From the NCBI GenBank assembly GCA_963796105.1, contig CAWCKJ010000002.1, positions 96,001-160,000 of the forward strand: a DNA stretch of 64,000 nucleotides, written 5' to 3'. This document shows positions 1,751 to 62,990 of this stretch, piece after piece. A program made the position numbers and the translations under genes. Every line of letters begins with the position of its first letter. Position 1 is the first letter of the stretch. Source of the DNA: a candidate division FCPU426 bacterium. Its GTDB lineage: Bacteria > Oederibacteriota > Muellerivitia > Muellerivitales > Muellerivitaceae. The notes beneath the pieces are model-generated. The model was given only the letters and a program-made list of their open reading frames with translations. It did not search any database and was not told where the DNA came from.

Positions 1751-1843
1751 TACCCGCTAAAATGGCAAAGCCATTTTCTTCCTATAAGTAATTAAGGAGG
1801 CCGGTATCGCAGCAATCTTCAAATAAGTTTTATGGAAGATTGG
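1751..1843 (-). repeat. Element A unit containing the AAAATGGC-NNN-GCCATTTT hairpin (C)
   Basis: Reverse complement reads ccaatcttccataaa...gaagattgctgcgataccggcctcc... The same hairpin occupies the same position at 25237-25259. Confidence 0.7.
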
Positions 1844-1962
1844 CACAACCGTGGCAAAAGATGTTACTGTGGTTTCGATGAAACCCGTGGTGTGTTGTTG
1901 TTGCTTTAGCTGAGTCTCCGTGTCCCTGTGGTGAGAGATGTCCGTTGTCTTCAATCCACCAT

Positions 1963-2643
1963 TCAAATTTTAGAATGGTCCTTCTTGAGCAGGTGATAAC
2001 ATTTTCTCGCCCAATTGAACAACCGGGTCTTCAGCCTTTTATCCTGGGTGTACTCGAAACGAGGGTTGGTCCTGATATCCTCCCCGATGATTTCCTTGAA
2101 CCTCACGCCGGGATGGTTTTTCAAGACGTGGGAGAAGCTGACCTGGTCCCTGAACTGCCACCGGCATAGTTCCGCCCACCAGGATTCGAACAATTCGTTG
2201 ACCCTGGGGATGTTCCTCCTGAGGATGAGATTGGTTTCCCATAAACCGGCCTTCTCGGGGAAACCCAGGCTTCGGTAGTGTTTTTCCTGCTCCTCCAGGA
2301 GCCTCATGAGCCATGGGTCCGACCTGAACCGCCTGTCCGTACGGAGGATTTTGATCTCCTCATAAAGGCAGTCCCGGGCGGGATGCTTGAACACCGCCAA
2401 ATCCGCGTCTCCCAGGTATCTCTTGACCGCCTCCGACTCGCTGATCCTCAATTTGATGTTGGCGTCCATCCAGATCAGGATGCCGCTGTCGGGGAAATAA
2501 AGGTGCCCCAGCATCTTGGAGCGCCTCGCCTCGTAAACAGGGGATAGCAGGCCCCCCTCCGGCCCGAAGCAGGGAATGTCGGTTCTCTTGAAAAAGGCGC
2601 CGTAGCGGTTTTGGGTCAGGGCGGTATAGGAGGCGATTTTCAA
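1963..2643 (-). CDS. DUF616-like glycosyltransferase-domain protein
   Basis: IWMDAN, FKHPARDCLYEE and RDQVSF motifs. Confidence 0.75.
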   Translation of the reverse strand: MKIASYTALTQNRYGAFFKRTDIPCFGPEGGLLSPVYEARRSKMLGHLYFPDSGILIWMDANIKLRISESEAVKRYLGDADLAVFKHPARDCLYEEIKILRTDRRFRSDPWLMRLLEEQEKHYRSLGFPEKAGLWETNLILRRNIPRVNELFESWWAELCRWQFRDQVSFSHVLKNHPGVRFKEIIGEDIRTNPRFEYTQDKRLKTRLFNWARKCYHLLKKDHSKI

Positions 2644-2701
2644 TGGTTTAACCCTTTCCGCCTTTAAATAGCAAATCTCCTCCCCAGATTCAAGAGTTTT
2701 C

Positions 2702-3700
2702 GGGGTCAGGTCTTCATTTTATATTAACTCCTGGTACAATACATGAATGGCCCGACCCCTCCGAGTGCACTTTGAAGGCGCTGTGTATCACGTGACTTCC
2801 CGCGGGAATGAACGGGGGGACATTGTCCGTTCGGATCAAGACCGGGAATTGTTTTTGCGCGTTTTGTCCCATGTGGTGGAAGACCACCATGTGTTGTGCC
2901 ACGCCTGGGTGCTGATGAATAATCATTATCATCTGCTTCTTGAAACACCGGAAGCCAACTTATCGAAAGCCATCCGGCATCTCAATGGGGTCTATACCCA
3001 GAAATTCAACAGGACCCATGACCGGGTGGGTCATTTATTCCAGGGCCGTTTCAAGGCCATCCATGTGGAGAAAGGCTCTCATTTGTTGGAACTGTGCAGG
3101 TATTTGGCGTTGAATCCTGTGCGAGCCGGCATGGTCAAGCATCCCCGGGAGTGGCGATGGAGCAGTTACCGCGCGACAGCGGGGGTCTCCGGGAAGGAGC
3201 CATGGCTTGAGGTGAATTGGGTTTTGAGCCAATTCGGGAAGCGTTTTAAGGTGGCCCAAGCTTCTTACAGGAAATTTGTTTTGGAGGGGATTGGGAAAAA
3301 GGGGTCGCCCTGGGATGAGATGGGCGGGAGCATTTATTACGGAGGAGAGGCGCTCAAGGAGAAGTTAAAGGGGTTGTTGAAGCGCAAAGACCCGGAGATA
3401 CCCTTAAAACATCACCGGATTGAGAGGCCGGCGGCAATGGAGGTGCTGAAACAAGTGTCGAGAGCCTATCGGGTGGATGAGAAAGTGATCACGGACAAAC
3501 GGCATCAAGTGAACGAGGCAAGGGATGTGGGCATGTACTTATTGCGGAAAAGATCGGGAATGTCTCTGGGGGAAATCGCGTCAAAGTTCGGCGTGAAATA
3601 CCCGGCGGTGGGAAATAGGCTGGCGGTGATGAGAAAGAAAGTTGAGACGGATCCTGGATTCAGGGCCAAGTTAGATAATATAAAATGAAGACCTGACCCC
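2702..3700 (+). mobile_element. 999-bp element with perfect 25-bp terminal inverted repeats carrying a Y1 HUH transposase (TIR-flanked RAYT type)
   Basis: ggggtcaggtcttcattttatatta at 2702-2726 and its exact reverse complement at 3676-3700. Confidence 0.85.
2747..3688 (+). CDS. RAYT-like Y1 tyrosine transposase with C-terminal DnaA-C-like HTH
   Basis: YHVTSRGN, LMNNHYHLL (HUH), HLFQGRFKA, YLALNPVRAG, WSSY; C-terminal SLGEIASKFG HTH. Confidence 0.9.
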   Translation: MARPLRVHFEGAVYHVTSRGNERGDIVRSDQDRELFLRVLSHVVEDHHVLCHAWVLMNNHYHLLLETPEANLSKAIRHLNGVYTQKFNRTHDRVGHLFQGRFKAIHVEKGSHLLELCRYLALNPVRAGMVKHPREWRWSSYRATAGVSGKEPWLEVNWVLSQFGKRFKVAQASYRKFVLEGIGKKGSPWDEMGGSIYYGGEALKEKLKGLLKRKDPEIPLKHHRIERPAAMEVLKQVSRAYRVDEKVITDKRHQVNEARDVGMYLLRKRSGMSLGEIASKFGVKYPAVGNRLAVMRKKVETDPGFRAKLDNIK

Positions 3701-3788
3701 AATGCGGGGGTGTGCCGGCTCAAGAATGCTTGGCCTTTTTGCCTTTAATTCATAATTTAAAATTCAAAATTTAGAATTCATTCATGTG

Positions 3789-3860
3789 CCGATCATCTGT
3801 GAAAACAAGATGAGAACGGTACGATACCAGCCTCAGTAAAAGTTTTATGGAAGGCTGGCA
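3789..3860 (+). repeat. Element A single unit flanked by TGTG/TGTG
   Basis: tgtg-ccgatcatct...ggtacgataccagcc...ggaaggctggca-tgtg. Confidence 0.85.
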
Positions 3861-3933
3861 TGTGGTTTTCACGAATGCCTTGGCCCCCTATGCCGAGCCC
3901 ACAAGGCGAGGCGTGAGTCTTGGGTGTGCCGGC

Positions 3934-4671
3934 TCAAGAATGAGCCGGCCAGTTGTCTACGCCGATCACGTGCAGTCCCACCCTCAGCAGGCTTCCCCAA
4001 AGCTTCGCGTATTCCACCCAGAATTCGCGCTCCATCCAAAAGCAGCTGGGCGCCGGCTCATTGGGACAGGAGACCACCTGGAATGAGGCCTTCCGGGGGG
4101 CGCCGTGCCGGTTTTGGGGCTGATCCGGGTAGGCGCCGGTCAGGTGAAAGCCGGAAAGGAAAAGGTACAGCCTGGTCAGCAACAGCGACCGGGGCTCATG
4201 CTGCCAGGTGGTGACGAGCGCGATCCGGTTGAAACCGCGTTGCCGGATAAAGGGCGCGGCTAAGCGGGCGTTCTGGTCGGTCGTGCGGGCGTGGGATTCG
4301 ATGGTGATGGAGATGTTCTTGTCGGCCTCGGGGTTCAGCAGGGGCCGGACGTCCTGGACCATCTCCGAAAAATAAGCCGTGGATTGGTATTGGCGGGCCA
4401 GCGCGATGCCGCGCCGGTCGGATTGGGTGGTGCCCCCGTAAACCAGGACCAGTTCAGGCCTTTCCGGTCCGGGTTTGCCCGCGTAAACCGCCCAGTAATA
4501 GATGAATTGGGCCAGGAGCAGAACCGCCAGAAGGCAGAAGGGGACCAAGAATAGTTTCCGCCGGAGAAGGTAGAGTCTCAGGTTCGGGTAGGAATTGCGC
4601 GAGACGCGTTTTTGCCCCGCGGGGGGTTGATTGGGATATTCTTTTTTATATCTGTTGTTTCTGTCATACAT
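3934..4671 (-). CDS. YdcF/DUF218 (SanA/ElyC-like) protein
   Basis: N-terminal TM, LVYGG, ESHARTTDQNA, LVTTWQHEPR and EYAK motifs. Confidence 0.8.
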   Translation of the reverse strand: MYDRNNRYKKEYPNQPPAGQKRVSRNSYPNLRLYLLRRKLFLVPFCLLAVLLLAQFIYYWAVYAGKPGPERPELVLVYGGTTQSDRRGIALARQYQSTAYFSEMVQDVRPLLNPEADKNISITIESHARTTDQNARLAAPFIRQRGFNRIALVTTWQHEPRSLLLTRLYLFLSGFHLTGAYPDQPQNRHGAPRKASFQVVSCPNEPAPSCFWMEREFWVEYAKLWGSLLRVGLHVIGVDNWPAHS

Positions 4672-4871
4672 AGTCAGTGGTTCCTAGCTCCCGGATAATT
4701 TGTTCTATACCTTTTGGCGGTTAAAGTAAATCTCGTTTAAGGTCATGTTTGTAATCGAATCGCGTCGAACCGTTCGAAATGGCTTGCCAAGTGTTGTTCC
4801 GCGGTTATTGGGTATTTTCTTGAAATTCAAAATTTAAAATTGCCTTTTAAAAATTCGGCCCGTTTGTTTTG

Positions 4872-5480
4872 CTAAAACGAATTCCCGTTAATACCGTGGT
4901 GCTCCGCGGGGTGCCCGGAATGGCCCGGCGTATTCGGCGGGAAAATCTTGGAACTGGCATCCTCCAACAACCTTTCCAGGTCGAGGATGCCGGCGGAATT
5001 ATTCATCAATTCCTTGGCCGGGTGGTCGGGGAACAAGGCGACTTCGACGCGCTTGCCTAGGGCGTTCACCGATTTCAAAAGGTCGGTATATTCCTCGCTC
5101 TCCGAGACCAGGATGGCGGTGTCGAACAAGTTGCGGGCCGCGTAATAAACCATCTCGGAGGCAAGAAGGATGCCCACGCCCTTTTCCCTGAGGCCTGTAT
5201 GCCCGTTGGAGGCCATGTGGCCCAAGCGGACCTCCACGAAGGGGGTTTTGTCGAGGGATTCCAGGAACGGCTGCTGCGTCGCCGCTTTTTCCGGGAAGAG
5301 TTTCTTGTCGTAGGAGCTGTTGTAGTAGAAGATCCTCTCCAGCTTCCTTTCCTTGCCTGTCAGGGCGAGGCCGAATTGGTAATAATCCACCCGGGTCGGC
5401 TGTTGGTTGCGCTTGAGGGCGAAATACAAATTATTCCCGTCGATAAACACGAAAACGCGGTTCATGGGCGATGGTTTCAC
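4872..5480 (-). CDS. NYN domain (LabA/DUF88) protein
   Basis: VFIDGNNLY, EKGV, DTAILVS and GKRVEV motifs; some canonical acidic residues are substituted. Confidence 0.85.
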   Translation of the reverse strand: MKPSPMNRVFVFIDGNNLYFALKRNQQPTRVDYYQFGLALTGKERKLERIFYYNSSYDKKLFPEKAATQQPFLESLDKTPFVEVRLGHMASNGHTGLREKGVGILLASEMVYYAARNLFDTAILVSESEEYTDLLKSVNALGKRVEVALFPDHPAKELMNNSAGILDLERLLEDASSKIFPPNTPGHSGHPAEHHGINGNSF

Positions 5481-5676
5481 TTTCTTTTTCGTTTCAAAAA
5501 AGCTGGCTGATTATAGCCAAAAAAACAACTTGAATGCCAGCTATCAAAAGCGGCGCCGTGCGGTTGATTTACCGGCTGATTTAGGCTCCGTTAAAAGGGG
5601 ATCATCCAGGCCTTTCTATATATAACTGCAATCATGAGTTTTGCTTTTGAATCGTCAATTGTTGAGGGCATTCGTA

Positions 5677-5827
5677 CCGAGCATCCATGCAAACATAAGG
5701 AGATCGGTACAGTACCAGCCTCCTTTAACTGTGTTATGGAAGGCTGGCACGTACCGATCATCCATGCAAACATAAGGAGATCGGTGTTATACCGAGCTTT
5801 CCAAAAAAGTTTCATCGAGGTTCGGCA
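5677..5827 (+). repeat. Two tandem element A units
   Basis: cgta-ccga...ggca-cgta-ccga...ggca. Confidence 0.8.
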
Positions 5828-5970
5828 TTTGGTGAAACGGAATTTTTTTGCCATACCGTGAGTTCGAAGAAACCTGTCGTTTGTAGTTAAATGTATTTTT
5901 TGTTTTGCGGTTTTTGCCTTACCCAAGAGGAAGCTTTTCCGTGACCTCTGTGGTTTCTAAGAAACCTGTG

Positions 5971-6042
5971 CCGATCATCCATAAAAATATATCGAGATCG
6001 CTACTATGCCAGTCCCAATATCATCCTTTTGGAAGACTGGCA
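5971..6042 (+). repeat. Element A unit inserted in a CTGTGGTTTC..GAAACCTGTG|GTGA palindrome
   Basis: TGTG on both sides; empty host versions near 20367, 24289 and 27617. Confidence 0.85.
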
Positions 6043-6198
6043 TGTGGTGAAATGTTGAAGCCGTTTGTTTTACTGTTGTTTTCATTTTTCATTCTACATT
6101 TTCCATTATCCATTTTTGCCGGGTATTTTCCCCCTCCCACGCCCATCCGCCTTATAATTAAGGAAGAAGGCAATCCCATTGGTCAAGGCGGGGCATTC

Positions 6199-7137
6199 AT
6201 GAAATTGAAACTCTTGGTGCCGCTCGGGCTGGTCCAGGAACGCTGGCATTCCGACCGGAAGCTTTTCATGGACAGGGCCAAGGAGCTTGGCGCGGAAGTT
6301 CTCCTGCAGGCGGACCGATTCAATGACGTGCTGAAGACCATCCAGGAAGGGAAGCTCAAGGACCAGGGCGTGGATGTCCTGGTGGTGGTGAGCCACAACG
6401 ACGAGGACTCTGCCCCCATCGTGAACGCGGCCCATGAGGCGGGAGTCCTGGTGGTGGCCTACGACCGGTTGATCCATGACTGCGACCTGGACCTTTACGT
6501 GTCCTTCGACAACGAGGCCGTGGGGGAGATGCAGGCCGAGTACCTGGTGGAAAGAAAACCCAAGGGCAATTACGTCCTCATCGGGGGCTCCCCGACGGAT
6601 GTCAACGCCGAGCTCTGCCGGAAGGGGCAGATGAAGGTTCTCCAGCCCTTCGTGAACAACGGCCGGATCCAGATCGTGGAGGACCAGTGGGCCAAGGACT
6701 GGCTTCCCATGGAGGCCCTGAGGATCACGAAGTCCGCCCTGGACAAGACCGGGAACCAGGTGGACGCGGTGCTGGCCTCCAACGACGGCACGGCGGGAGG
6801 GGCCATCCAGGCCCTGGCGGGAAGGGGCCTGGCGGGCAAGGTGCCCGTCACGGGGCAGGACGCGGACCTGGCCGCCTGCCAGAGGATCGTGGATGGGACG
6901 CAGTGCATGACGGTTTACAAGCCCCTCAAGCGCCTCGCGGCCCAGGCCGCCGAGGCCGCCGCGGCCCTCGCGTTGAAAAAGCCCATTCCGGACACCCGGG
7001 GGATCCACAACGGGAGGAAGGTTGTCCCCAGCATCCTGTTCCAGCCGGTCCTGGTGGACTACACCAACATCTACCAGACCGTCTTTTCCGACGGCTTCCA
7101 CGACGAGTCGAAGGTGTTCAAGAAAGAACCGACCTAA
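6199..7137 (+). CDS. xylF: D-xylose-type sugar ABC substrate-binding protein (XylF-like)
   Basis: ERWHSDR, VVAYDRLI, YVSFDNEAVG, GGSPTD.NA, ASNDGTAGG, VTGQDAD and TVYKP motifs; likely start ATG 6199. Confidence 0.8.
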   Translation: MKLKLLVPLGLVQERWHSDRKLFMDRAKELGAEVLLQADRFNDVLKTIQEGKLKDQGVDVLVVVSHNDEDSAPIVNAAHEAGVLVVAYDRLIHDCDLDLYVSFDNEAVGEMQAEYLVERKPKGNYVLIGGSPTDVNAELCRKGQMKVLQPFVNNGRIQIVEDQWAKDWLPMEALRITKSALDKTGNQVDAVLASNDGTAGGAIQALAGRGLAGKVPVTGQDADLAACQRIVDGTQCMTVYKPLKRLAAQAAEAAAALALKKPIPDTRGIHNGRKVVPSILFQPVLVDYTNIYQTVFSDGFHDESKVFKKEPT

Positions 7138-7302
7138 AACCCACCAAAAGACAATTTTGAATGTTGAATTTTAAATTGCTGAAGACTCAATTAAAGGCGT
7201 CAGGAATAGCTGGGATTCAGGGGATAAACATATTAACCACGGGTTCCCACGGGAACCACAGTGCTTACGCATCACAGAAGAAGATTTAATGGGATCTGTT
7301 TA

Positions 7303-7552
7303 GATCGTGTTCTATGGCCAATGCCGACGACCCCGGGAAAATCTATTTTTCCGAGGACCGCGGGCATGTACCGGTTCACCATAAAGCAGTTAAGGAAATC
7401 GGTACGATACAGGCCGCATGAGGCTACCAGCCGAGAGCGATGGTTGCCGGGGCAGATTTATAGTAAATCTGTACCAGCCTCATTTAAAGGTTTATGAATG
7501 GCTGGCATGGCCATATCGCCAATGGCGCAAAAGCCATGCTCTTGTCACGATC
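7303..7552 (+). repeat. Nested element: D containing A (7371-7507) containing B (7410-7471)
   Basis: Comparison with empty D (1618-1728) and uninterrupted A units. Confidence 0.8.
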
Positions 7553-7790
7553 GCGGTTTTTAACCTATTTGATGTTTTAACTGTGTCTCTGTGTTGTGCG
7601 AAGCACAACTGTGGTGAAACGTTGAAGTTGTTTGTTTTGCTGTTGTTTTCATTTTCCATTGTCCATTTTTCATTATGTCCACTTGTGTCCCTGAAAGTTT
7701 GCGCGTCAACCTGTTTTGGGCGGGTCTTGTGCTATACTGCCCCGCGCTTGATGTGGATTTCCGTAATTAAATAAATGGGGAGCGGATACG

Positions 7791-8036
7791 ATGAGTTTCC
7801 AACAAAAACGCGTCTATTCCTTTTGGCGCAACAGGATCAGGGCCGCCAAGGGCATGGATGCCTTGAACGAGATAGTCAACGGCCTTAACCGGCAATTGAA
7901 CCGGATCATCCAGAACAACGCGGACAAGGGTTTATCCGAACAGACCATTATCGAGCTGTGGGACCTATTGAAGAAAAAAAGAAGAAGTTATTTGGCGCGG
8001 ACCGAGTTCTTCAGGTGCGGGAATTTTTCGGTCTAA
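7791..8036 (+). CDS. Small hypothetical protein
   Basis: 81-aa ORF with a purine-rich RBS-like sequence upstream; no recognised motif. Confidence 0.55.
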   Translation: MSFQQKRVYSFWRNRIRAAKGMDALNEIVNGLNRQLNRIIQNNADKGLSEQTIIELWDLLKKKRRSYLARTEFFRCGNFSV

Positions 8037-8250
8037 CCGCGCGATATTAATTGTTAATTTTTCATTCTACATTGCCTGTCCATCGACCAGTCTTCCGACA
8101 TGTCTCCCGACCTGTGTCCCGTAGCTTGCGCGTAGGGACAAGCTTTAGCAAAGGAAGAAGCTCAAAGAGCGCAGTGGTATGTTGAATTGTTTATTGTGGT
8201 TTTGATATTTTTTATGGTACCTAATGAAATGTTTTAACTGTGTCTCTGTG

Positions 8251-8324
8251 CCAATCTTCCATAAAGATTAAATGGAGATTGGTACGATACCGATCTCCTT
8301 ATTAATTTATTTGGAGGGTCGGCA
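8251..8324 (+). repeat. Element A unit inserted in CTGTGTCTCTGTG|TGGTGCGAAGCAC
   Basis: Empty homologue at 7574-7619; TGTG on both sides. Confidence 0.85.
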
Positions 8325-8360
8325 TGTGTGGTGCGAAGCACCGCTGTGGTGAAATGGGTT

Positions 8361-11300
8361 TTAATGAATAACCGCGACTTTCCCGCTGAAAATTCGTGAT
8401 CCCGCTTGAACCCTATAGATGTAAACCCCCGTCGCGACAGGTGTCCCGGAGTTGTTCCGTAGGTCCCATTCCATCTCGTTCAAGCCCGGGTTTCCGGAGA
8501 TATCTGCGGAATAGACCAACTCACCCACAATGGAATAAATGGCAAGCTTAATGGGTGTCGATTGGCCCGTGAGCATCACCCTGAATTGGATGGGTGTCCC
8601 ATCCTGGGAAATGTTCGGCCATGCCGCGGCTGAATCAGAAGTGGGGAGCGGGGGAGTGGGGTTGGGAGTGGGTGTCAGGGTCATGGCCGGGGTGGGCGTG
8701 GGTTTGGAGCCAAGGACCACGTTCATGATCTTATCCGCCGTGCCGGGTTTATATTCTTCCACGACGGTGGTGCCGCAATCCACCGCGTACAAGTCCCCGG
8801 CGGGATCGAACGAAAGACAGCTGGGGTTGCGAAAATCCAGGACACCTCCGTCTATTTCCCCCGAGTAGGCCCCGGTGTTCGAGGCGTAAACCACCCGGTT
8901 GTTGTCCCAGTCGGAAATGAATAGGTTATTGTTGGAATCCACCACGATCCCGGCGCTGTAGGTCCCCAGGACCTGGGCCCAGCCGGTGCCGTTGAATGAG
9001 CCCTGCGAAACGTATGAGGAATTGTAAGAGGTGATGGAGGTTCCCGGCTCGAGGTAGTTGTCCACATAGAAGTTGCCGCTGGAGTCCATCGCCGCGTCCT
9101 GCGGGTAAACCCCCGGGCCCGCCGGGATGATATTCGATCCGGTCCCATCGACCCATTTCAAAAGCCAAACGCCGGTGTCGTCGGCGATCACCAATCGCTC
9201 GTTCATCCCGCTTCCATTAATCCTTACACTATTGGGTAATACGCAGTCTTCCTCACCGTTCCAAGTGTAATCGCTAACGGCCCCGCTGGGACCCAGGATA
9301 TAACCCACCACCCCCGTGCCGTACTCGGGAACATAAAGCTCGCCATCTGTATCCAGCGCCATATTGCCGAGATAACCCCCGTTAGTGGTGATGGTATAGA
9401 GTGAATTGCCATTGATGTCGTAAACGAAGATATCACCGTTCGCGTCCCCGTCATTCACCGCGATGTAATAAGCCCCGTCGGTCGTCACGCTCCAGGGGTT
9501 GATGTCCCCGTCGAACCCGGAGGGGACGTAATCGGCCGTCAGGTTCCAGCCGGCCAGTTGCTGGGGGGGCGTCGGCGTAGGGGTGAGGGTGTTGACGGTC
9601 ATGGACGTGTACCAGACGTCGTTTAAGGCCGTTGAACCGGTGTACCCGCCCAGGGTCCACATCCTGTTGTTGAAAACAACGGCGCTATTGGAATCCCTCG
9701 GCGGGAAAGCGGCCGAGGCGTTGACCTCGTTCCATTGGTTCCCGTCCGTGGAATTCCAGACGTCGTTTGAAGGCGTACCCCAGTCCTGCCCGCCGATCAA
9801 CCACATGGCGCCGTTATAAACGAGGGATGGAAATGAGTCCTTTTTTCCGAACGCGGAAATTTGGGAGACTTGGGTCCAACTGACCCCGTTGGAGGAGGAC
9901 CAAACATCCTCGAAACCCTGGCCCCCGGCTACCCACATTTTTCCGGCGTAAACAAACGCGGAGGCGAAAGCCCTGGCGGCAAAATTGGCGCTGGCGGTGG
10001 CCTCGGTCCAGTTGACGCCGTCTGGGGAATACCAAACATCATTCAGAAAACCGCTGAGGCCCCACCCTCCGATCACCCACATCTTGCCCGTCGCGGTCCC
10101 GTCCGCGGGATTGTAAACCACCCCGCAATGGCCGAACCTGGCGGGAAAGGCTGCGTTGGTAGTGGCGGACGACCAATTGGCGCCGTCCGGGGAATACCAA
10201 ACGTCTTTCTGGCAGGTAGCGTTTGCTAACCCGCCGATCACCCACATTTTGCCGGTCGCGGTCCCGTCGGCTGGGTTGAAAACCTCGGAGGTATGATCGG
10301 CCCTGGGGCTGAACGCGGCGTTGGTAGTGGCGGCCGACCAGTTGGTCCCGTCCGGGGAATACCAGGCGTCGTTCATCGCGTTGCCTGAATTGCCCCCGCC
10401 GCCGATCACCCACATCTCGCCCGTCTGGGTCCCGTCGGAGGGGTTGTAAACCACCGAGCTATGGCCGTTCCTGGCGGGGAAGGCGGCGTTGAGCGTGGCC
10501 GGGCTCCAGCAGTAGCCCGTGATGGAAGAGGAGCAGGTGGGCGTAGAGGTCGGAGTGGAGGTGGGGGTGTTGGTTGGGGTGTAAGTGTAAGAAAAGGTAT
10601 AAGTAGGTGTGGGTGTCCAGGTAAAGGTCGGGGTGGGAGTCAAGGTAGGGGTCGGGGGCAGGGCGTTTGAATGCCAAACGTCGTTCAGGTAGGGAGTGGT
10701 TAGGTTTCCATCCCAGCCGCCCAGGACCCACATGGCCGGTCCGGACCCATTGTCGAACGTCACTCCGCTCATGCCGGCGCGCGGGGGGAAAGGCGCCGAG
10801 GAGGTAGCCTCTGTCCAGTTGGCCCCGTCGCCGGAGCTCCAGACGTCGTTGTTCTCGGGGCTTGATAGTCCGGTTCCGCCTATGACCCACATTAAACCGT
10901 TATAAACCATGCAAGCGTCGCTGTACCTGAACCCGAAGCCTGGAGAGGAGGTGGCCAGGGTCCAATGGACGCCGTCGGTAGTTGACCATACGTCGCTGGT
11001 GGCCGCGCTTCCCCCGATGACCCACAGCCTTCCACCGTAAACCAGGGCCGAGGCCCAGGATCTCGGGGTGAACGGCGCGTTGGCGGTGGCCTGCGTCCAG
11101 TTGGCGCCGTCGCTGGAGTACCAGACGTCGTTCGCGAAACCGTTTGCCGTGTAGCCCCCGATGATCCACATTTTTCCCGAGGCGGTCCCGTTGACCGGGT
11201 TGAAAACGGCGCTGCACATGCCCCAGCGGCCGGAAAAGGCGGCGTTGGGGGTGGCGGGGTTCCAGTTGATGCCGTCGGTGGAGTACCAGGCATCGTTGGC

Positions 11301-12455
11301 ATAGGCCCCGGAAGAAAGTTGCCCCCCGATCACCCACATCCTGCCCGTCGCGGTCCCGTTTGAGGGGTTGAAAACCACCGAGGCGTGGCCCACCCGGGGG
11401 GAGAAGGCCGCGTTGGCGGTGGCGGGAATCCAGATATCTCCATTCGAGGAATAATAAACGTCATTTAAAAAAGAGGGGGCCGTGCCGTATTGTCCGCCGA
11501 TCACCCACATCTTGCCCGTTTGGGTCCCGTTGGCGGGGTTGAAAACCACCGAGCTATGTCCGGTCCTGGTCCGGAAGGCCGCGTTGGCCGTGGACTCGGT
11601 CCAGCAGGAGCCCAGGACGGACGTGGAACAGGTGGGCGTGTTGGTGATTATGGGGGTAGGGGTTGGCGTATTGGTGCTGGTTGTGTCATTGTCAGAGAGA
11701 ATCTCGATGCCCTGGTAGTCGGCCGTATTAGCTGAGCTTAACGCATAGGTCGGGAAATAGGTTCCGGGTGACGGGGCGGGCATTTCGTCGCCTTCGCTCA
11801 CCTTAGGCATCGGTTGTGCCCATCTTCTGGTTTGTCCCGTGCCCGCCACGATGCTGACCGTGGGATTGGTATTGCCCTGCATGCACATGGAAGCGATGAG
11901 GCTATTGTAGTAGAGGGTGTTGTCCGTAAAGGTCTGGGTCGTATTCGCGGGATTTGAGTAAAAAGTAGTCGCGCCATAAGGGGTGGTTTGGTTCACGTAT
12001 TGGTAGCAAAGAACAGCCATATCCAGGTATGCGCTTGCGCTGATAATGACCGTCACGGTATTGGTACCAACCGCGGGATTGACCAGGTACCAGGTTTCCA
12101 TGGAATCGCCATTGGGCGGGTCAGAATCCCTTCGGATCAAGCTGAAGGGAGTTGTGTTATAAGTCGCGGAAGTGACTGAAACGGCCGAATCGAAGATGGC
12201 GACCTGCAGGAGCAAAAGGGTATCGGTTCCGCTGGGGGATATGTTGGCCCGAAAAGTTGCGGCCTCGGTAGTCCCAGTTCCACCTTCGGTTACGTAAGCA
12301 GGTGAGGTTTGGGCCTGGAGGGAAAAGGGAAGGGACAAAAACAAAATGAATAATGCGAAATGGATCAACAGGAATGGGGAATGAAAAAAATCATTCCGCT
12401 TAAGCAAGGGAACGGTCAATCGGCTCATACAACCTCGCTGTATCTTCATAAACAT
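8361..12455 (-). CDS. Large secreted protein: two kelch-like propeller blocks, Thr/Pro linkers, NHL-like propeller, C-terminal FlgD-Ig-like domain
   Basis: Repeated MWVIGG...NDVWYS.DG.NW...A.F.R motifs, TPTPTP linkers, C-terminal IYSIVGELV...WDLRNNSG.PVATGVYIY. Confidence 0.85.
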   Translation of the reverse strand: MFMKIQRGCMSRLTVPLLKRNDFFHSPFLLIHFALFILFLSLPFSLQAQTSPAYVTEGGTGTTEAATFRANISPSGTDTLLLLQVAIFDSAVSVTSATYNTTPFSLIRRDSDPPNGDSMETWYLVNPAVGTNTVTVIISASAYLDMAVLCYQYVNQTTPYGATTFYSNPANTTQTFTDNTLYYNSLIASMCMQGNTNPTVSIVAGTGQTRRWAQPMPKVSEGDEMPAPSPGTYFPTYALSSANTADYQGIEILSDNDTTSTNTPTPTPIITNTPTCSTSVLGSCWTESTANAAFRTRTGHSSVVFNPANGTQTGKMWVIGGQYGTAPSFLNDVYYSSNGDIWIPATANAAFSPRVGHASVVFNPSNGTATGRMWVIGGQLSSGAYANDAWYSTDGINWNPATPNAAFSGRWGMCSAVFNPVNGTASGKMWIIGGYTANGFANDVWYSSDGANWTQATANAPFTPRSWASALVYGGRLWVIGGSAATSDVWSTTDGVHWTLATSSPGFGFRYSDACMVYNGLMWVIGGTGLSSPENNDVWSSGDGANWTEATSSAPFPPRAGMSGVTFDNGSGPAMWVLGGWDGNLTTPYLNDVWHSNALPPTPTLTPTPTFTWTPTPTYTFSYTYTPTNTPTSTPTSTPTCSSSITGYCWSPATLNAAFPARNGHSSVVYNPSDGTQTGEMWVIGGGGNSGNAMNDAWYSPDGTNWSAATTNAAFSPRADHTSEVFNPADGTATGKMWVIGGLANATCQKDVWYSPDGANWSSATTNAAFPARFGHCGVVYNPADGTATGKMWVIGGWGLSGFLNDVWYSPDGVNWTEATASANFAARAFASAFVYAGKMWVAGGQGFEDVWSSSNGVSWTQVSQISAFGKKDSFPSLVYNGAMWLIGGQDWGTPSNDVWNSTDGNQWNEVNASAAFPPRDSNSAVVFNNRMWTLGGYTGSTALNDVWYTSMTVNTLTPTPTPPQQLAGWNLTADYVPSGFDGDINPWSVTTDGAYYIAVNDGDANGDIFVYDINGNSLYTITTNGGYLGNMALDTDGELYVPEYGTGVVGYILGPSGAVSDYTWNGEEDCVLPNSVRINGSGMNERLVIADDTGVWLLKWVDGTGSNIIPAGPGVYPQDAAMDSSGNFYVDNYLEPGTSITSYNSSYVSQGSFNGTGWAQVLGTYSAGIVVDSNNNLFISDWDNNRVVYASNTGAYSGEIDGGVLDFRNPSCLSFDPAGDLYAVDCGTTVVEEYKPGTADKIMNVVLGSKPTPTPAMTLTPTPNPTPPLPTSDSAAAWPNISQDGTPIQFRVMLTGQSTPIKLAIYSIVGELVYSADISGNPGLNEMEWDLRNNSGTPVATGVYIYRVQAGSRIFSGKVAVIH

Positions 12456-12930
12456 CGTTCAGATTAGAATACGGACAGTTGCGACTTAATGTTTAAAGTG
12501 TAAACCCGGATGGTGTTTTATGCAATTTGCCGGAAGGGGGCTATATAAAGGGTTTTAGGGGCATTTCAGGTTTTTGTAGAAGCTGAGCCTCTGAATACTC
12601 TTTGGTTAAATAAGTTTGTAATTGGTTTAATTTTTAATTGTTCATTTTTCATTGCCGTATTGGTGCCTTTGATTTTCCATTGTTCATAGTACATTTTTCA
12701 TTATGTTCACCTGCGTCCCTGTGGTGAGAGGTAGTCTTTGATACTGTGGTTTCGAAGAAACCTGTGTTTTGGCCTTTGGTTATCTGTATTTGTTGCTTTT
12801 GAAGTTATTTAAAAGGACCCAATTGAAGTTGTTATCGTGGTTCTGAAAGAAACCGTGGTGAGATGGCCGTTGCCTGAAATTCAACATTCAAAATTCATAA
12901 TTTAAAATTCGCGTTCTTTGGTTTTTCGCG

Positions 12931-15114: not shown

Positions 15115-15383
15115 GACTTGTCTCCCCTGGAAGAAGGTTATGCATCGCGGGGGAGAAGGTCAACAAGGTAAAACGAATAATGGGGGGCTTTTATATGAAG
15201 AGTTACTTTAGGTAATGGGCAGTCATGCGTTGTATTCATTTTCCATCGTACGTTGTTCGTTGCCCTATCGCGGTGCGGGAGATCTGGCCCCTTTGTCTTT
15301 GTACAAATAGTATGTAACCTCTGAAAAAGTCGGCCATCGCCTCCTTTTTCAGAAAACAAATTATGGAAACCCCACGATTTCCT

Positions 15384-15444
15384 GCGGAAATCTTTGGGGT
15401 CGAAACCTCTGTTGGTCGCTTTTAATAGTTTTTCAGAGGTTTCA
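15384..15444 (-). repeat. About 61-bp hairpin repeat; second copy at 31026-31087
   Basis: GAAACCTCTG-loop-CAGAGGTTTCGACCCCAAAGATTTCCGC in both copies; loops differ. Confidence 0.75.
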
Positions 15445-15561
15445 GTATTACTAAATGTACATATCAATCTCAGGGGAACGGCTGATTCCAGGCCCGTCTT
15501 GCGCCGGGGCTTTCTGGGGTGGTTTAGATTGGGGCGGCCGCTTCCATCACGGCTGGATCGT

Positions 15562-15586
15562 TAATATAAAATGAAGACTTGACCCC
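15562..15586 (-). repeat. Solo terminal repeat of the Y1 element at 2702-3700
   Basis: taatataaaatgaagacttgacccc, one mismatch to 3676-3700, same AATG flank. Confidence 0.85.
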
Positions 15587-15628
15587 AATGGTAAGAGTTC
15601 CCGGGCCTGCCCCGAGCTTGTCGAGGGG

Positions 15629-16795: not shown

Positions 16796-16812
16796 TTTCG
16801 AAGAAACCTGTG

Positions 16813-20057: not shown

Positions 20058-20058
20058 G

Positions 20059-58045: not shown

Positions 58046-58268
58046 TGCCAGCCCTCCATAAAACTAATAGGGGGCTGGTATCGTACCAATCTCCACATAT
58101 GCTTAAAGGAAGATTGGCACAGGGACTCATGCCGAACCACCGTAAGGCTTTAAAGGAAAGTTCGGTACAGATTTACTATAAATCTGCCCCGGCAATCCTC
58201 TCACTCGGCTGGTAGCCTCATGCGGCCTGTATAGCACCGATTTCATTAACTGATTTATGGAAAATCGG
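58046..58268 (-). repeat. Two element A units, one carrying an empty element B (58168-58229)
   Basis: Inverted paralogue of 20059-20217, where B is absent. Confidence 0.88.
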
Positions 58269-58442
58269 CGCAGAGACTCAGCTAAAACAACCATCTTTTA
58301 CCACAGGTTTCTTCGAAACCACAGAGTACACGGTAAAGCGTCCTCTTGGGTACGGCTAAAACATCAAAACAACTACGTCATCTCACCACAGTTGTGCTTC
58401 GCACAGCACAGAGACTCAGCTACTACTTTTGCCACGGATGTA

Positions 58443-58516
58443 ACGATCAACCATAAAAACATATAGAGAGATCGGCACTATACCAGCCCCCGTATCAGCC
58501 TTATGGAAGGCTGGCA
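58443..58516 (+). repeat. Element A unit
   Basis: cgatcaaccata...agatcggcactataccagcc...ggaaggctggca. Confidence 0.8.
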
Positions 58517-58936
58517 TGCATGGGATACATGGGATTTTAAGCAACTTCAGATCGTGACAAGAGCTTTGCTCTTGCGCCCGTTGGGCTTTATGGCGCATCC
58601 GCAGGCCTCGGAAAAATGGATTTTCCCGGTGGCCGTCGGTTCCGCCATAGTACACGATCAATAACCAAGGCTTCATTTAAAACTTAGAATTCAAAACTCA
58701 AAATTCATTCTGTAAAGAATGCCTTGCCCATCCCCCTGCATCCCCTGAATCCCAGCTAAAACTCAGTTATTAACTGTTATCGTACGCACAAAGGGGTCAG
58801 TGGTTCGAGAACCTCACCATCCGCAGGCATTTTACACTTTAGCTAATTTTTTATAACTATCGGTAAACCAATGGGTATTCCTACATGAAGGCCGGAATTA
58901 TAGCATAACCATCTTGGAAATGACGTGAAAACCTTA

Positions 58937-59922
58937 CATGCTTCTGTATTAAGTGACCCTTGAAATAAAGGAATACATAGGTATACTGTCCGCTACGGGA
59001 GGTGGTACATGAGCTACCAGCGGATGAAAAGCATTAAAATTCTGAGGAAAATCCACACGGAAGAAGAAGCCCGCCAATGGGTGTGGAGATGCCGTTTCGG
59101 CGGGAAAGACTTTGTTTGTCCCCAATGTGAGGGCGAAAGCTTCTGGCAACACCAGGCCAAGCCTGAAGTGAGGGAATGTGACTATTGCCGGAAACGTCTT
59201 CGGCTTCGCGCCGGGACGATTTTTGAAAGCTCCAAGCTGCCTCTTTTAACCTGGGTCAGGGCCATCAGTTTGATGATGCAGGGCAAACGGGGTATTTCGG
59301 CCCTGGAACTGAAGCGGCATTTAAATCTTTCGGATCATTCGGCATGGCTTCTATTGCATAAGATCCGGGAAGGTCTTAGGCAAAAGGACGAAAGCTATAC
59401 TCTAAAGGGCGTCATTGAGTTGGATGGGGCGGTTTTTGGGAAAAAGGCCAAGGAAAACCAAGTGGAAGTCTTGGTGGCGGTGGAAAGCAAGGAATGGGTG
59501 GATGAGAATGGTTGCAAGAAGGAAAAAGCGGGTTTTGCCAAGGTGAAGGTAGCTATGGAAACCAAGTGGGAGAGCCAGGAATTCGTGAATCAGACTATGG
59601 AAAAAGGCTCTTTCCTCAACACAGATGCTTCGCCAGCCTTGCGTGAACTCAAAGGAGTGGAGGCAGACTACCGGGTGATGGCCAATGACCCGAAAGAGTT
59701 GGAAAGTTGGTTGCCCTGGGTACACCGGTTCATTTCCAACGCCAAGGCCTGGATCATTGGAACTCATCATGGCGTTGATGCTAAGTATTTAGGCCGGTAT
59801 CTAAGTGAATATGCCTATCGGTTCAACCGTCGTCATGATCCCGATTCCTTATTTCACCGTGCTTTGACCGCATGTGCCTTAGCAAAACCCATTACAGCAC
59901 GGTCACTTTGTGCATAAGCATA
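58937..59922 (+). mobile_element. IS1595-family element, copy 2
   Basis: Same IRs and protein as copy 1; 8-bp TSD aaacctta. Confidence 0.95.
59009..59917 (+). CDS. IS1595 transposase
   Basis: Translation identical to 22036-22944. Confidence 0.95.
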   Translation: MSYQRMKSIKILRKIHTEEEARQWVWRCRFGGKDFVCPQCEGESFWQHQAKPEVRECDYCRKRLRLRAGTIFESSKLPLLTWVRAISLMMQGKRGISALELKRHLNLSDHSAWLLLHKIREGLRQKDESYTLKGVIELDGAVFGKKAKENQVEVLVAVESKEWVDENGCKKEKAGFAKVKVAMETKWESQEFVNQTMEKGSFLNTDASPALRELKGVEADYRVMANDPKELESWLPWVHRFISNAKAWIIGTHHGVDAKYLGRYLSEYAYRFNRRHDPDSLFHRALTACALAKPITARSLCA

Positions 59923-60883: not shown

Positions 60884-61231
60884 TTATCCCGCTCGGTTAA
60901 CTTGCTGAAGGCCTTCCAGGTAACAAGTAATAGCTTCTTTCGCGTTTTCCAAGGCCTCCTTGATGGTCTCACCTTGGGAGAAGCAACCGTCCAAAGCCGG
61001 GACTCGGACATTGAAACCGCCCTCATCGGCATGTGCCAATCGGACATGAAAATAAATCGGGATTGGTACCATACCAGCCACATTAAAGTTTTGTGGAAGG
61101 CTTGCATGTTCCAGAACAACGTCAAGGGACGACCCATTGGGTCGCCACTTGGCCGGGACATGGTCCCCGGCCAAGTACACGGCTTGTCCCCGGCTAAAGC
61201 CGGGGCCTGAAGGCAGCCGGTCAAATTTCAT
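60884..61231 (-). CDS. hicB: HicB-family antitoxin with two in-frame element insertions
   Basis: Removing the 99-bp and 75-bp inserts gives MKFDVVLEHADEGGFNVRVPALDGCFSQGETIKEALENAKEAITCYLE. Confidence 0.85.
   Translation of the reverse strand: MKFDRLPSGPGFSRGQAVYLAGDHVPAKWRPNGSSLDVVLEHASLPQNFNVAGMVPIPIYFHVRLAHADEGGFNVRVPALDGCFSQGETIKEALENAKEAITCYLEGLQQVNRAG
61036..61106 (+). repeat. Element A unit inside hicB
   Basis: GCATGT at 61029-61034 and 61104-61109, 75 bp apart. Confidence 0.85.
61121..61219 (-). mobile_element. Element E copy (99 bp) inside hicB
   Basis: Minus strand TTGAC|cggctgcc..ggccccggctttagccgggg..gtcccttgac|GTT. Confidence 0.82.
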
Positions 61232-61349
61232 GTTGACACCTTTCTAAAAGGCTTCTGATGGCTTCCATCAATCTGCCTTTGAATTGGAATTATAACCTGG
61301 TAAGACACTCATATGGCCAGGGAACATAAAACAGAAGGGGGTCTCTATT

Positions 61350-61994
61350 TTATGTATTCGGCCCTTTGTTATTCGCTTTTTTGAGAAGTTTTCGATAGAG
61401 ACCGCCAAAAGGGCCTTCCAGGGCGCTTTTCTCGAAATATTCCGCTTCTTCCCTCCAAGTCATGCCTTTAGTCGCCTTGTGGATTTTGCGTTGGATCTCT
61501 TCTTTCATTTTTAAGGCATCGAAACCCTTGATGGGCTTAATTTTTTTAATTTTGCGATGCCGCGTTTTTGGTTTGGGTTTACCTGGTTTATATATGGAAT
61601 GGATTTCGTGGAAGCCGGGTGGATTGAATTCTCCAATAGGTAGACGCCGGATTCGGACATCATCTTTCTCAATAATGATGATGGCGCCATTTATAAGAGG
61701 TTCCTCGATGATTGACCAATTTTTTTCAAGGTTACCGGCCAGGTTAGCGACGGTCATTTTTTGCGTGCGGAATATCACGACTGAAGGCCTGGATTTTCCT
61801 GAAAAAGCCAATATTTTCCCAAAATCCAAATCGTGGGTTAAAAGTACAGAACCCCTTGACTCAGCGAGGGATAAAATAACCTCGTCGCCCGCTTTACTAT
61901 GACCAAGTTTTCCTGAGTGTATGGCTTGATGACCAAGGCGGGCCAAGTGCTGGCAAAGTGATGGGGAAAGGTTGTTATCTAAAAAGAATTTCAT
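61350..61994 (-). CDS. DUF5615 PIN-like toxin with long C-terminal extension
   Basis: MKFFLDNNL, LLTHDLDFG, PSVV.FR, RIRRLP. Confidence 0.85.
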   Translation of the reverse strand: MKFFLDNNLSPSLCQHLARLGHQAIHSGKLGHSKAGDEVILSLAESRGSVLLTHDLDFGKILAFSGKSRPSVVIFRTQKMTVANLAGNLEKNWSIIEEPLINGAIIIIEKDDVRIRRLPIGEFNPPGFHEIHSIYKPGKPKPKTRHRKIKKIKPIKGFDALKMKEEIQRKIHKATKGMTWREEAEYFEKSALEGPFGGLYRKLLKKANNKGPNT

Positions 61995-62230
61995 GGACGA
62001 GAAGGTATGAAGCGTTCCTCGGCCTCAAGGGAGCAATAGGCCAGGGCCTGAAGGATGTCCTCTTCCTCGAGTTCGGGCCATTCTTTTAGGATTTGGCGAA
62101 TGGTCATACCACCGCTCATGTAAGCCAATATACTGGCCACCGGCATGCGGTAACCCCGAACGCAGGGTTTCCCGAAACATTTTTCCGGATCGAATGTGAT
62201 TCGCTCAAATTTGTAATGGTGGTGTTCCAT
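61991..62230 (-). CDS. DUF433 antitoxin
   Basis: RITFDP...GKPCVRG.RMPV...WPELEEEDI..AL.Y. Confidence 0.9.
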   Translation of the reverse strand: MEHHHYKFERITFDPEKCFGKPCVRGYRMPVASILAYMSGGMTIRQILKEWPELEEEDILQALAYCSLEAEERFIPSRP

Positions 62231-62390
62231 AACGCTGCCTTTCAGCGGTAATTATAACATTGGATGGGAATGAATGGTATTCGGCAACTCCTAATTCCGA
62301 ATTGCTAATCGTTCTTTAGGAGTTATTTCTTTTTACGGGGCCGCGTTTTTGGTTTTCTTTGCCTTTGCACAGATTTACTATAAATCTGCG

Positions 62391-62990
62391 CCGATCTACC
62401 GTGAAGAGACATTGAGATCGGTGCAATACCAGCCTCTTTAAAGTTTTTTGGAGGGCTGGCATGCGCCGATCTACCGTGAAGAGACATTGAGATCGGTGCA
62501 ATACCAGCCTCTTTAAAGTTTTTTGGAGGGCTGGCATGCGCCGATCTACCGTGAAGAGACATTGAGATCGGTGCAATACCAGCCTCTTTAAAGTTTTTTG
62601 GAGGGCTGGCATGCGCCGATCTACCGTGAAGAGACATTGAGATCGGTGCAATACCAGCCTCTTTAAAGTTTTTTGGAGGGCTGGCATGCGCCGATCTACC
62701 GTGAAGAGACATTGAGATCGGTGCAATACCAGCCTCTTTAAAGTTTTTTGGAGGGCTGGCATGCGCCGATCTACCGTGAAGAGACATTGAGATCGGTGCA
62801 ATACCAGCCTCTTTAAAGTTTTTTGGAGGGCTGGCATGCGCCGATCTACCGTGAAGAGACATTGAGATCGGTGCAATACCAGCCTCTTTAAAGTTTTTTG
62901 GAGGGCTGGCATGCGCCGATCTACCGTGAAGAGACATTGAGATCGGTGCAATACCAGCCTCTTTAAAGTTTTTTGGAGGGCTGGCATGCG
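62391..62990 (+). repeat. Perfect tandem array of 8 x 75-bp element A units inside element B (62370-63031)
   Basis: ccgatctacc recurs every 75 bp from 62391 to 62916. Confidence 0.95.

Follow-up and report, generated by a model that had tools for sequence, protein, structure and literature searches.

Repetitive extragenic palindromes (REPs) are imperfect palindromes of 20 to 50 nt that occur in high copy number and lie mainly between genes (PMC3733652, PMC8266576). They can be divided into subfamilies with complementary stems, contain G-T pairs, and are found as tandemly reiterated dimers and as dimers inside other short repeats; in tail-to-tail (TT) dimers, for instance GTAG-19 of Opitutus terrae, the partners are 1 to 2 bp apart (Di Nocera, De Gregorio & Rocco 2013, PMC3733652). 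Here we describe a repeat of this kind, element A, in a stretch of 64,000 nucleotides (the window; contig CAWCKJ010000002.1 of assembly GCA_963796105.1, positions 96,001 to 160,000, or G000:C2:96001-160000) from an uncultured soil bacterium of candidate division FCPU426, whose genome assembly, G000, comprises 4.98 Mb in 16 contigs. The unit of element A is 75 to 77 bp long and consists of two mirrored hairpins. An initial annotation of the window had proposed an uncatalogued mobile element. As a kind it has precedents: the anatomy is that of a TT REP dimer, a bacterial interspersed mosaic element (BIME) or a doublet of the REPIN type (REP doublet forming hairpins), including the tandem reiteration and the insertion into other repeats. 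Element A belongs to this known kind, and what is new in it is a different tag, the absence of a linked REP-associated tyrosine transposase (RAYT), and a coupling between internal bases and flank. REPs, BIMEs and REPINs have been studied mainly in Proteobacteria and their spread is poorly understood; with element A the class now reaches into an uncultured lineage of soil and peat.

The likeness to TT REP dimers is close. Both consist of two imperfect inverse palindromes whose tags lie on the inner side, about 1 nt apart, both have complementary stem subfamilies and G-T pairs, and both occur as singletons, dimers and tandem dimers, located in other repeats or palindromes and mostly in intergenic DNA. 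Unlike TT REP dimers, element A carries the tag (G/A)TAC, which is partly paired with the 3' tail, has long loops (about 9 to 20 nt) that vary from locus to locus, comes with no REPtron, and is confined to one uncultured family. REPINs are also known to form clusters of tandem doublets, some of them beside RAYT genes (Bertels & Rainey 2011, PMC3116915). Like E. coli BIME-2 and the REPINs of Pseudomonas fluorescens (PMC3116915, PMC8266576), element A has a doublet as its replicative unit, forms near-identical tandem arrays, is non-autonomous and intergenic, and clusters near RAYT-class genes. However, the halves of a REPIN lie 20 to 100 bp apart and join in one long hairpin, whereas each half of the unit folds alone and pairing between the halves shows no covariation. 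REPIN systems also have a single-copy, vertically inherited RAYT flanked by its own REPs, whereas here there are multi-copy TIRtrons with unrelated ends. A TIRtron, or TIRYT (tyrosine transposase associated with terminal inverted repeats), is a RAYT-like Y1 nuclease gene framed by long inverted repeats with the motif GGGGWSAS (PMC3733652).

Work on the enzymes of these systems gives insight into what a tag may do. The dinucleotide cleaved by TnpA-REP lies on the 5' or the 3' side of the REP, and the tag occupies the place that the guide has in IS608 (Corneloup et al. 2021, PMC8266576). For a Marinomonas REPtron in vitro, altering GTAG to GTGG or GTAC shifted cleavage to another dinucleotide (PMC8266576). 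As in IS608 and the IS200/IS605 family at large, and as in the Marinomonas REPtron, the bases immediately 5' of the hairpin foot in element A are complementary to the flanking dinucleotide, the presumed cut or join site. Unlike the Marinomonas work, which was done in vitro with GTAG REPs and CT or CA sites, the evidence from element A is comparative, its guide would be shared by both halves, and its enzyme is only a candidate. The CGTC-tagged REPs resemble element A in that they apparently have no dedicated adjacent transposase gene (PMC3733652); unlike them, element A has a different tag and different stems, with no CGTC motif in the unit.

A second group of relatives by appearance are the miniature inverted-repeat transposable elements (MITEs) Correia/NEMIS and RUP, which share with element A the size class, terminal inverted repeats (TIRs), a short flanking direct repeat and an intergenic location. 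These MITEs duplicate TA and have ends derived from an insertion sequence (IS). Element A, unlike them, is made of two independently folding tagged palindromes, and no parent IS was found among the IS families checked in G000.

Fold, symmetry and distribution of element A

Units were located with a profile built from 5 seed units, taking non-overlapping window matches at E<=1e-3. This yields 40 units at 13 loci (33 of the 40 full length), with 29 on the plus strand and 11 on the minus strand, in good agreement with the roughly 37 units at about 14 loci, in both orientations, counted in the initial annotation. The layout described there, with co-varying stems (CCAAT/ATTGG, CCGAT/ATCGG, CTGAT/ATCAG) and locus-specific loops, is likewise visible in the alignments. 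A fixed-spacing pattern for hairpin 2 gave just 5 matches because loop length varies, and the profile was used instead.

Covariation was measured in an alignment of 50 distinct units (11 in the window, 39 in the rest of G000; L001, with a 20-nt internal insertion, was left out), by comparing pair counts with column shuffles and with controls in which the partner was slid. RNAalifold recovers both hairpins, and in a hand-completed structure of 20 pairs, 88.8% of cells hold standard pairs. Changes on both sides are seen in 13 of the 20 pairs. Doubly changed cells number 73, against 23.8 +/- 3.4 in column shuffles (0 of 500 as high), and sliding the partner by 1 to 3 columns lowers pairing to 24 to 43%, so that the structural constraint suspected from the sequence at the outset is borne out. 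For example, hairpin 1 switches between GC and AU at columns 11-51 (39/11) and between CG and UA at 14-48 (31/15), and hairpin 2 between AU and GC at 63-97 (39/10) and between GC and AU at 64-96 (34/11). The twin hairpin is also the minimum-energy fold of single-stranded DNA on both strands (z -3.7 to -4.8). A long hairpin of the REPIN type, in which the outer arms pair, was considered and rejected; it rests on conserved columns and has no clear covariation, with 12 cells against 7.2 and 12 of 500 shuffles as high. Covariation in a palindrome is compatible with RNA, single-stranded DNA or a cruciform as the selected form. DNA is favoured in that the unit is dyad-symmetric, has no preferred orientation with respect to genes and lacks promoter and terminator signals.

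The dyad symmetry comes from hairpin 2, in which a hairpin-1-like palindrome is repeated in inverted form. Its opposite strand reads TGCC-RRYC-T-(T)-CCAT ... ATGG-A-GRYY-GG, which is the hairpin-1 layout with the bulged base included, and the models therefore score units on the reverse strand too (9 to 24 bits with the profile, 49 and 64 bits with a covariance model). The initial annotation had already remarked on an imperfect inverted repeat between the outer ends, which these scores reflect. Each half in its own orientation is 5'-(G/A)TAC-stem-loop-stem-CA, and the two tags abut at the centre (..GGTAC-N-ATACC..), as GTAC on the bottom strand for the left half and as ATAC or GTAC on the top strand for the right half. 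At the third pair from the base, columns 60-100 hold a conserved A.C mismatch (unpaired in 46 of the 50 units), whose mirror is a G.T at columns 8-54 on the top strand (38 of 50). An absence of the GTAG foot of REPs had also been reported for the unit. This stands to the letter, as neither GTAG nor any of the variants GYAG, GYRG, GTRG, GTMG and GTGG is present, the fourth base of the tag being C; but a tag, (G/A)TAC, does sit at the position of the REP foot. Inverted dimers and their tandem reiteration, two further features of REPs, are seen in the dyad symmetry and in the window arrays of 7, 8 and 8 units.

Across G000 the profile finds 165 units at 132 loci, far beyond chance, and the covariance model at least 150 matches. 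Contig C2, on which the window lies, is enriched, with 11.9 units per 100 kb against 0 to 3.6 elsewhere. By gene calls that are crude and ORF-based (open reading frames; 85.5% of the genome is called coding), 111 of 124 unit loci lie outside called ORFs. With halves of about 35 to 40 nt, the family has the size, copy number and intergenic location of REPs. The intergenic regions that hold units are co-directional in 71 cases, divergent in 20 and convergent in 19, against a background of 2206, 511 and 502, and units are oriented like their neighbouring co-directional genes 36 times and opposite to them 48 times; there is no bias in either respect. Promoter and terminator scans of two arrays gave no site that recurs per unit, and a tRNA scan found no tRNA.

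Beyond G000, the covariance model has matches in 21 of the 24 further genomes scanned from this family, or 14 of its 17 genera (g1-g17), at 3 to at least 110 per genome; among 16 genomes that represent nine other families of the phylum, 0 have a match. A strict-pattern scan of GTDB, one genome per species, gave at least 22 loci; among the matches listed, all are in uncultured metagenome-assembled genomes (MAGs), labelled (delta)proteobacterium or bacterium only. Rfam has no match over the whole window at gathering score, in keeping with the uncatalogued status first proposed, and a permissive threshold applied to an array brought only sub-threshold chance matches to miRNA models. A literature search found no described repeat with a (G/A)TAC tag, which is not proof that none is in print. 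The covariance model marks about 150 intergenic sites per genome in the family that an annotation might otherwise take for RNA genes or CRISPR-like arrays.

Precise insertion coupled to internal bases

The flanks of 116 full-length copies in G000 fall into a few recurring contexts, and a regex scan of the genome shows that these host contexts also occur without the unit. The type 1 context (GCCACRGA / TGCATGGGAT) was found empty 28 times and filled 22 times (20 with a recognisable unit end), type 2 (CCCTGAATC / CGTGGCAA) 25 and 8 times, type 4 (GTCTCTGAGTCCC / TGTGGTG) 15 and 7 times, with one of the empty sites in the window, and type 5 (CTGWGTCTC / TGTGTGGTG) 3 and 2 times. The regex for a type 3 context returned 0 empty and 0 filled sites, though this context is visible by eye among the flanks. 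Comparison of empty with filled sites shows that the insert is a TGCC...GGCA block plus a second copy of a dinucleotide present once in the empty site. With so many empty and filled sites, the insertion point can be fixed to the nucleotide. The identical type 1 position holds several stem subtypes of the unit, for which repeated targeted insertion is a simpler account than a single event.

Presence and absence also differ between species. In the syntenic core region C4:449-468 kb of G000, where genes are about 80 to 84% identical to those of the congener G001, all four unit-bearing intergenic regions lack the unit in G001 and are much shorter there; the intergenic DNA is too diverged for exact empty sites, and the comparison scores presence and absence only. 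Positions 1-20000 of the window could not be placed in synteny with G001 because this region is an island of mobile DNA. A mobile, non-autonomous element had been predicted from the sequence, and both parts of that prediction hold. The first is carried by the empty and filled paralogous sites together with the four orthologous sites in the congener, the second by the fact that no ORF fits in 75 nt. Element A is a mobile, non-autonomous, structure-constrained DNA element.

The dinucleotide before TGCC is the same as the dinucleotide after GGCA in 93 of 99 distinct copies (TG/TG in 81, CG/CG in 10, TA/TA in 2). Inverted ends (TGCCRRYC..) and a 2-nt repeat are what is looked for in a MITE, as TIR and target site duplication; here the repeat co-varies with internal bases. 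The flanking dinucleotide is complementary to central columns 56 and 58, with column 57 looped out, such that C.A accompanies TG, C.G accompanies CG and T.A accompanies TA. At pair 5-58, 45 units have UA, 4 have CG and 0 are unpaired; at pair 58-102, 43 have AU and 4 have GC. In exact-pattern counts over 31 family genomes, base 58 is A with base 102 T in 324 copies and G with C in 18 (in 4 genomes of 2 genera), while the mixed combinations A with C and G with T are seen in 3 and 2 copies. CG/CG flanks accompany the G58 copies in no fewer than four distinct contexts, across two species. The T56, or TA, subtype offers weaker evidence, as its 7 copies (2 in G000 and 5 in G001) all lie in the type 1 host repeat. 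Empty type 1 sites have TT (35), TG (28) or TA (6), and filled ones TG or TA only. Care must be taken with all of these counts, which overstate the number of independent events because copies are related. The coupling is nonetheless a pattern unlike the outcome of random target duplication. If the tag guides cleavage, a match between tag and flank is what a comparison of copies should show; the idea has so far been backed only by in vitro work on one REPtron. The insertions also differ from those of palindrome-associated transposable elements (PATEs), mini-elements derived from IS200/IS605 that insert 3' of a conserved tetra- or pentanucleotide and without a flank repeat; for element A the left flanks vary (GGA, ATC, ACC, CCC, CTC, GCA and others) and the dinucleotide is repeated on both sides.

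In arrays, successive units are separated by the shared dinucleotide alone (..GGCA-TG-TGCC..), and a vestigial TGCGCC/GGCA follows the last unit. They adjoin head to tail without the unique spacers that mark a CRISPR array, just as the initial annotation had said. The array at 16809 has a higher-order period of 229 bp (a-b-b), which points to growth by unequal recombination. The unit's own junction, GGCA-TG, recurs as the left flank of single insertions, suggesting that arrays can be seeded by insertion beside an existing end. Hairpin 1 can also be joined to a different 3' module (AGGCCGCATGAGGCT..), of which there are at least 7 copies, and the family is therefore mosaic, as BIMEs are.

Candidate enzymes and competing explanations

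Two genes in the window (Table 1) encode RAYT-class Y1 nucleases that score above the 80-bit cut-off of NF047646, the NCBIfam model of REP-associated tyrosine transposases, and weakly match E. coli TnpA-REP (PDB 4er8). There are 21 Y1 matches in G000, 12 of which are full length at 50 to 63% identity. The Y1 genes are framed by inverted repeats beginning GGGGTCAG, and these fit the GGGGWSAS motif; the genes for a Y1 domain plus a DnaA-C helix-turn-helix (HTH) are therefore TIRtrons (TIRYT). A TIRYT protein is found in 17 of 24 genomes of the family and in 10 of 16 outside it. The four most unit-rich genomes (G000, G001, G016 and G006) hold several TIRYT copies each and are also larger and repeat-rich.

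On balance, we lean towards the view that element A is a lineage-specific REP-type family, a tail-to-tail dimer that is non-autonomous and mobile, and that it is handled as folded single-stranded DNA by a RAYT-class nuclease in trans. The enzyme would be an HUH tyrosine nuclease, and the TIRYT genes, with at least 12 full-length copies in G000, would be the best candidates to encode it. Bases 56 and 58 of the abutting tags may pair with the dinucleotide and so set the points of cleavage and insertion, as in IS608 and in the Marinomonas REPtron in vitro. An array could begin when a unit lands on the TG beside an existing unit, possibly because the unit's own end resembles a target, and could then grow by unequal recombination, in line with the a-b-b period.

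A more specific version can be put forward tentatively, and as a whole it is somewhat unlikely. In this version, bases 56 and 58, shared by both tags, pair with the cut and insertion dinucleotide; a single base change retargets the unit (C.A to TG, C.G to CG, T.A to TA); the unit's own end seeds arrays; and a TIRYT-type HUH enzyme acts in trans on repeats unlike its own ends. If true, it would answer the question, raised in PMC3733652, of whether TIRYTs act on REP-like repeats, and would be natural, population-level evidence for guide-programmed targeting in REP-type DNA. The family in any event provides a concrete substrate for asking whether TIRYT enzymes act beyond their own ends.

Several observations weigh against a REP-type family served by such a nuclease. 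The tag differs at its fourth base from every GTAG variant listed in PMC3733652. The ends of the TIRYT genes themselves (GGGGTCAGG..) are unrelated to the unit, not one of the 16 PF01797 matches in G000 has a unit on each side, a unit lies within 1.5 kb of 5 of the 21 Y1 matches where about 2 would be expected from locus density, and 0 of 13 Y1 loci from other genomes hold a unit within the fetched flanks. With ends unrelated and linkage weak, a REPtron in the sense of physical linkage was rejected, and TIRYT remains a candidate only. Nor do the two co-occur as a check suggested in the initial annotation would have it: seven unit-bearing genomes (G004, G007, G013, G018, G019, G021 and G023, with 5 to 38 units each) have no TIRYT match and three genomes with a TIRYT match hold no unit, although several of the TIRYT-negative or unit-negative genomes are fragmented MAGs in which absence is not proven. 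The CG and TA subtypes represent few lineages, and the TA subtype is found in one host context only, so that few independent events stand behind the coupling. Elements of the IS200/IS605 type show strand bias; the units have no GC-skew orientation bias (29/20 versus 32/11, p=0.18). Finally, a repeated 2-nt flank would also result from a DDE transposase, or from a recombinase whose core is 2 nt long.

The DDE transposase leads to the alternative that survives best, a MITE, by which the unit would be a deletion derivative of an IS with TGCC.. TIRs, moved with a 2-bp duplication by an IS630/Tc1-like or IS30-like enzyme. It can draw on the imperfect terminal inverted repeats of 8 to 17 nt with ends TG...CA, on the 2-nt direct repeat and the precise insertion relative to empty sites, and on IS630 and IS30 family transposases present in G000; abutted ends with a 2-bp spacer would also explain the tandem arrays. 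We still regard it as unlikely, since random duplication fails to explain why the dinucleotide tracks bases 56 and 58, the abundant TT sites that stay empty are not accounted for, and stem covariation beyond the termini is needless in a DDE substrate. A parent is lacking as well: no gene in G000 is bracketed by isolated unit-like ends, and the IS30, IS630 and IS110 copies were rejected as parents because their inverted repeats are unrelated (best local score to the unit end 15 to 20 of 38). The classic IS200 copies, two identical 151-aa TnpA genes at C7:20697-21053 and C14:47634-47990 of G000, were rejected as a source, as their end hairpins (CCACGGGCTTGCCCGTGG) are different. No parent IS with unit ends was found in a search that left out IS607-type serine transposases and some other IS families.

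Less probable again is a small circle-forming element moved by a site-specific recombinase with a 2-nt crossover core, either serine (IS607-like) or IS110-like, with the dinucleotide belonging to the element. A core of this kind would explain how the same dinucleotide stands at both junctions and travels with the subtype, and it suits empty sites that keep exactly one copy of the dinucleotide as well as insertion that recurs at specific contexts. It gives no role to the pairing of the dinucleotide with bases 56 and 58 in the extended hairpins, no recombinase is linked to the unit (IS607-type genes were not searched), and the sole IS110 copy has unrelated ends.

We give little credence to anciently dispersed, host-recruited arrays that bind protein or shape DNA, like the gyrase- or IHF-binding BIMEs. 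Retention in 14 of the 17 genera at high similarity and perfectly homogeneous arrays are in its favour, but relatives have anywhere from 3 to at least 110 copies, congeners differ at orthologous sites, and a reading of this kind, which does not exclude mobility, leaves the empty and filled sites and the flank coupling unexplained. Least credible is an RNA role for the units, be it as structured genes or as cis-acting elements (stabilisers of mRNA, terminators, tandem small RNAs): selection on RNA would explain the covariation, the G.U at 8-54 and the slightly better fold of the top strand (-16.6 versus -13.9 kcal/mol) suit it, and REPs are reported to work at the RNA level in other bacteria (PMC3733652), but the hairpin-1 G.U is mirrored by the hairpin-2 A.C, as an inverted duplicate gives, presence and absence between congeners argue against a fixed function, Rfam has no match, and the gene-context, skew and promoter/terminator results give no support to a strand-specific RNA role.

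Features of the window and neighbouring repeats

Table 1. Units of element A, an empty site and TIRtrons in the window. CM, covariance model; TRF, Tandem Repeats Finder.
Feature	Coordinates	Strand	Evidence or remark
Degenerate unit, hairpin 1 whole, hairpin 2 broken	1743-1851	-	nhmmer match 1787-1847 = profile positions 1-61; CM match G000:C2:97743-97851, 39.5 bits
Empty type 4 host-context site (GTCTCCGTGTCCC-TG-TGGTGA)	1914-1934	+	Regex genome scan; elsewhere the same context holds a unit between the Cs and TGGTG
TIRtron 1, RAYT-class Y1 nuclease + DnaA-C-like HTH, ORF 2747-3688	2700-3712	+	Pfam Y1_Tnp + Bac_DnaA_C; NF047646 88.7 bits; inverted repeats GGGGTCAGGTCTTCAT / ATGAAGACCTGACCCC
Single full unit, 100 nt 3' of the first TIRYT gene	3785-3860	+	CM match 83.9 bits
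Two adjoining units, the first of the G58 / CG-flanked subtype	5676-5826	+	
Single full unit	5967-6042	+	
Hairpin 1 + different 3' module (AGGCCGCATGAGGCT..), then separate hairpin-2 piece 7472-7507	7367-7507	+	
Single full unit, CCGATC/GGTCGG hairpin-2 subtype	8247-8324	+	Reverse strand scores well too
Head-to-tail array of 7 units; two variants, arranged a a b b a b b	16809-17343	+	IS3-family element at 3' end; TRF 16809-17346, period 76, 7.0 copies
1 degenerate + 2 full units	20057-20294	+	a/b variants as in the 16809 array
Single G58 / CG-flanked unit	24169-24244	+	Within type 2 host repeat (CCCCTGAATC-CG..CG-TGGCAAA)
2 full units, then hairpin-1 half + alternative 3' module	24340-24545	+	TRF 24340-24537, period 77, 2.6 copies
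Array of 8 identical units, opposite orientation, stem variant CTGATC/GATCAG	24582-25189	-	TRF 24575-25189, period 76, 8.1 copies, 100% matches
Full unit 58046-58121 + hairpin-1 half with alternative module 58220-58272	58046-58272	-	
Unit without its first 5 nt	58444-58516	+	In type 1 host repeat
Single full unit	61032-61106	+	
Array of 8 identical 75-nt units	62387-62986	+	End about 100 nt upstream of the second TIRYT gene's inverted repeat; TRF 62387-62993, period 75, 8.1 copies, 100% matches
TIRtron 2, ORF from 63139 onward, off the window end	63092-64000	+	Pfam; NF047646 86.8 bits; upstream inverted repeat GGGGTCAGGCCTACATTTTACACTTTA

The host DNA around the units is itself rich in short repeats. 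The commonest landing site is a host repeat of about 50 nt (..ACACCTGTCCAAAATAGACTTTAGCCACRGA-TG-CATGGGATWCATGGGATTTAA..), of which there are about 70 unit-free copies, with examples in the window at 24244-24290 and 58516-58560; a related inverse form reads ATCCCCTGCATCCCCTGAATC-CG-TGGCAAAGG. The CCACGG/CCGTGG core of the IS200 end hairpins recurs in host repeats targeted by the unit. A small hairpin repeat, (C)TGTGGTTTCGAAGAAACC(Y)GTGGTG, lies at 1866-1890, 16785-16808, 20368-20395 and 24286-24310 of the window, and TGTGGTGCGAAGCACCGCTGTGGTG is a relative of it; both bear YGTGG motifs beside insertion points of the unit. This motif resembles half a DnaA box, a likeness of possible relevance to an enzyme whose HTH is DnaA-like. 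Near units and IS elements, at 3747-3781, 20408-20440 and 23235-23267, there is also an AT-rich motif with a 14-bp period (AATTCAAAATTTAA), in 2.4 to 2.5 copies each.

Other repeats accompany the TIRtrons. At four of them in G000 (C3:193610, C11:133332, C3:664976 and C7:99793), an inverted-repeat end is directly adjoined by tandem arrays of other short repeats, with units such as caacccagtattggagg.., ctaccggcatgg.. and ggaactctggaactcc... In the window, a 43-bp tandem repeat (GATAACCCGCCGACAGTACCGTCGGCATGGGCCGGTAAGCTGA; 31179-31495, 7.4 copies, 92% matches) lies under ORFs with no Pfam match; its CCGNCGGCATGG motif recalls the array next to the C7:99793 TIRtron.

Mobile genes are frequent in the window. 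An IS3-family element (17347-18647) abuts the last unit of the 16809 array and is followed by an IS256-type transposase gene (18738-20006). The same a and b unit variants occur on both sides of this pair, and the two ISs may therefore have split one array. An IS1595-type transposase gene is present in two copies (22036-22944 and 59009-59917), whose 302-aa products have identical Pfam scores. Between 38000 and 47000 there is a block of low GC content (about 40%, against about 52% elsewhere) with co-directional minus-strand ORFs, adjoining genes for polysaccharide export and chain length (Wzz/GNVR, Poly_export). Two very large Kelch/NHL-repeat proteins are encoded at 8361-12455 and 12931-15114, with internal DNA tandem repeats of 123 to 165 bp, and one of them has FlgD-Ig and CHU_C (T9SS-type, for type IX secretion) C-terminal domains. 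Short interspersed repeats of about 133 bp (15313-15445) and about 103 bp (16616-16718) have many copies in G001 at 85 to 97% identity, which exceeds the 70 to 84% of the neighbouring genes.

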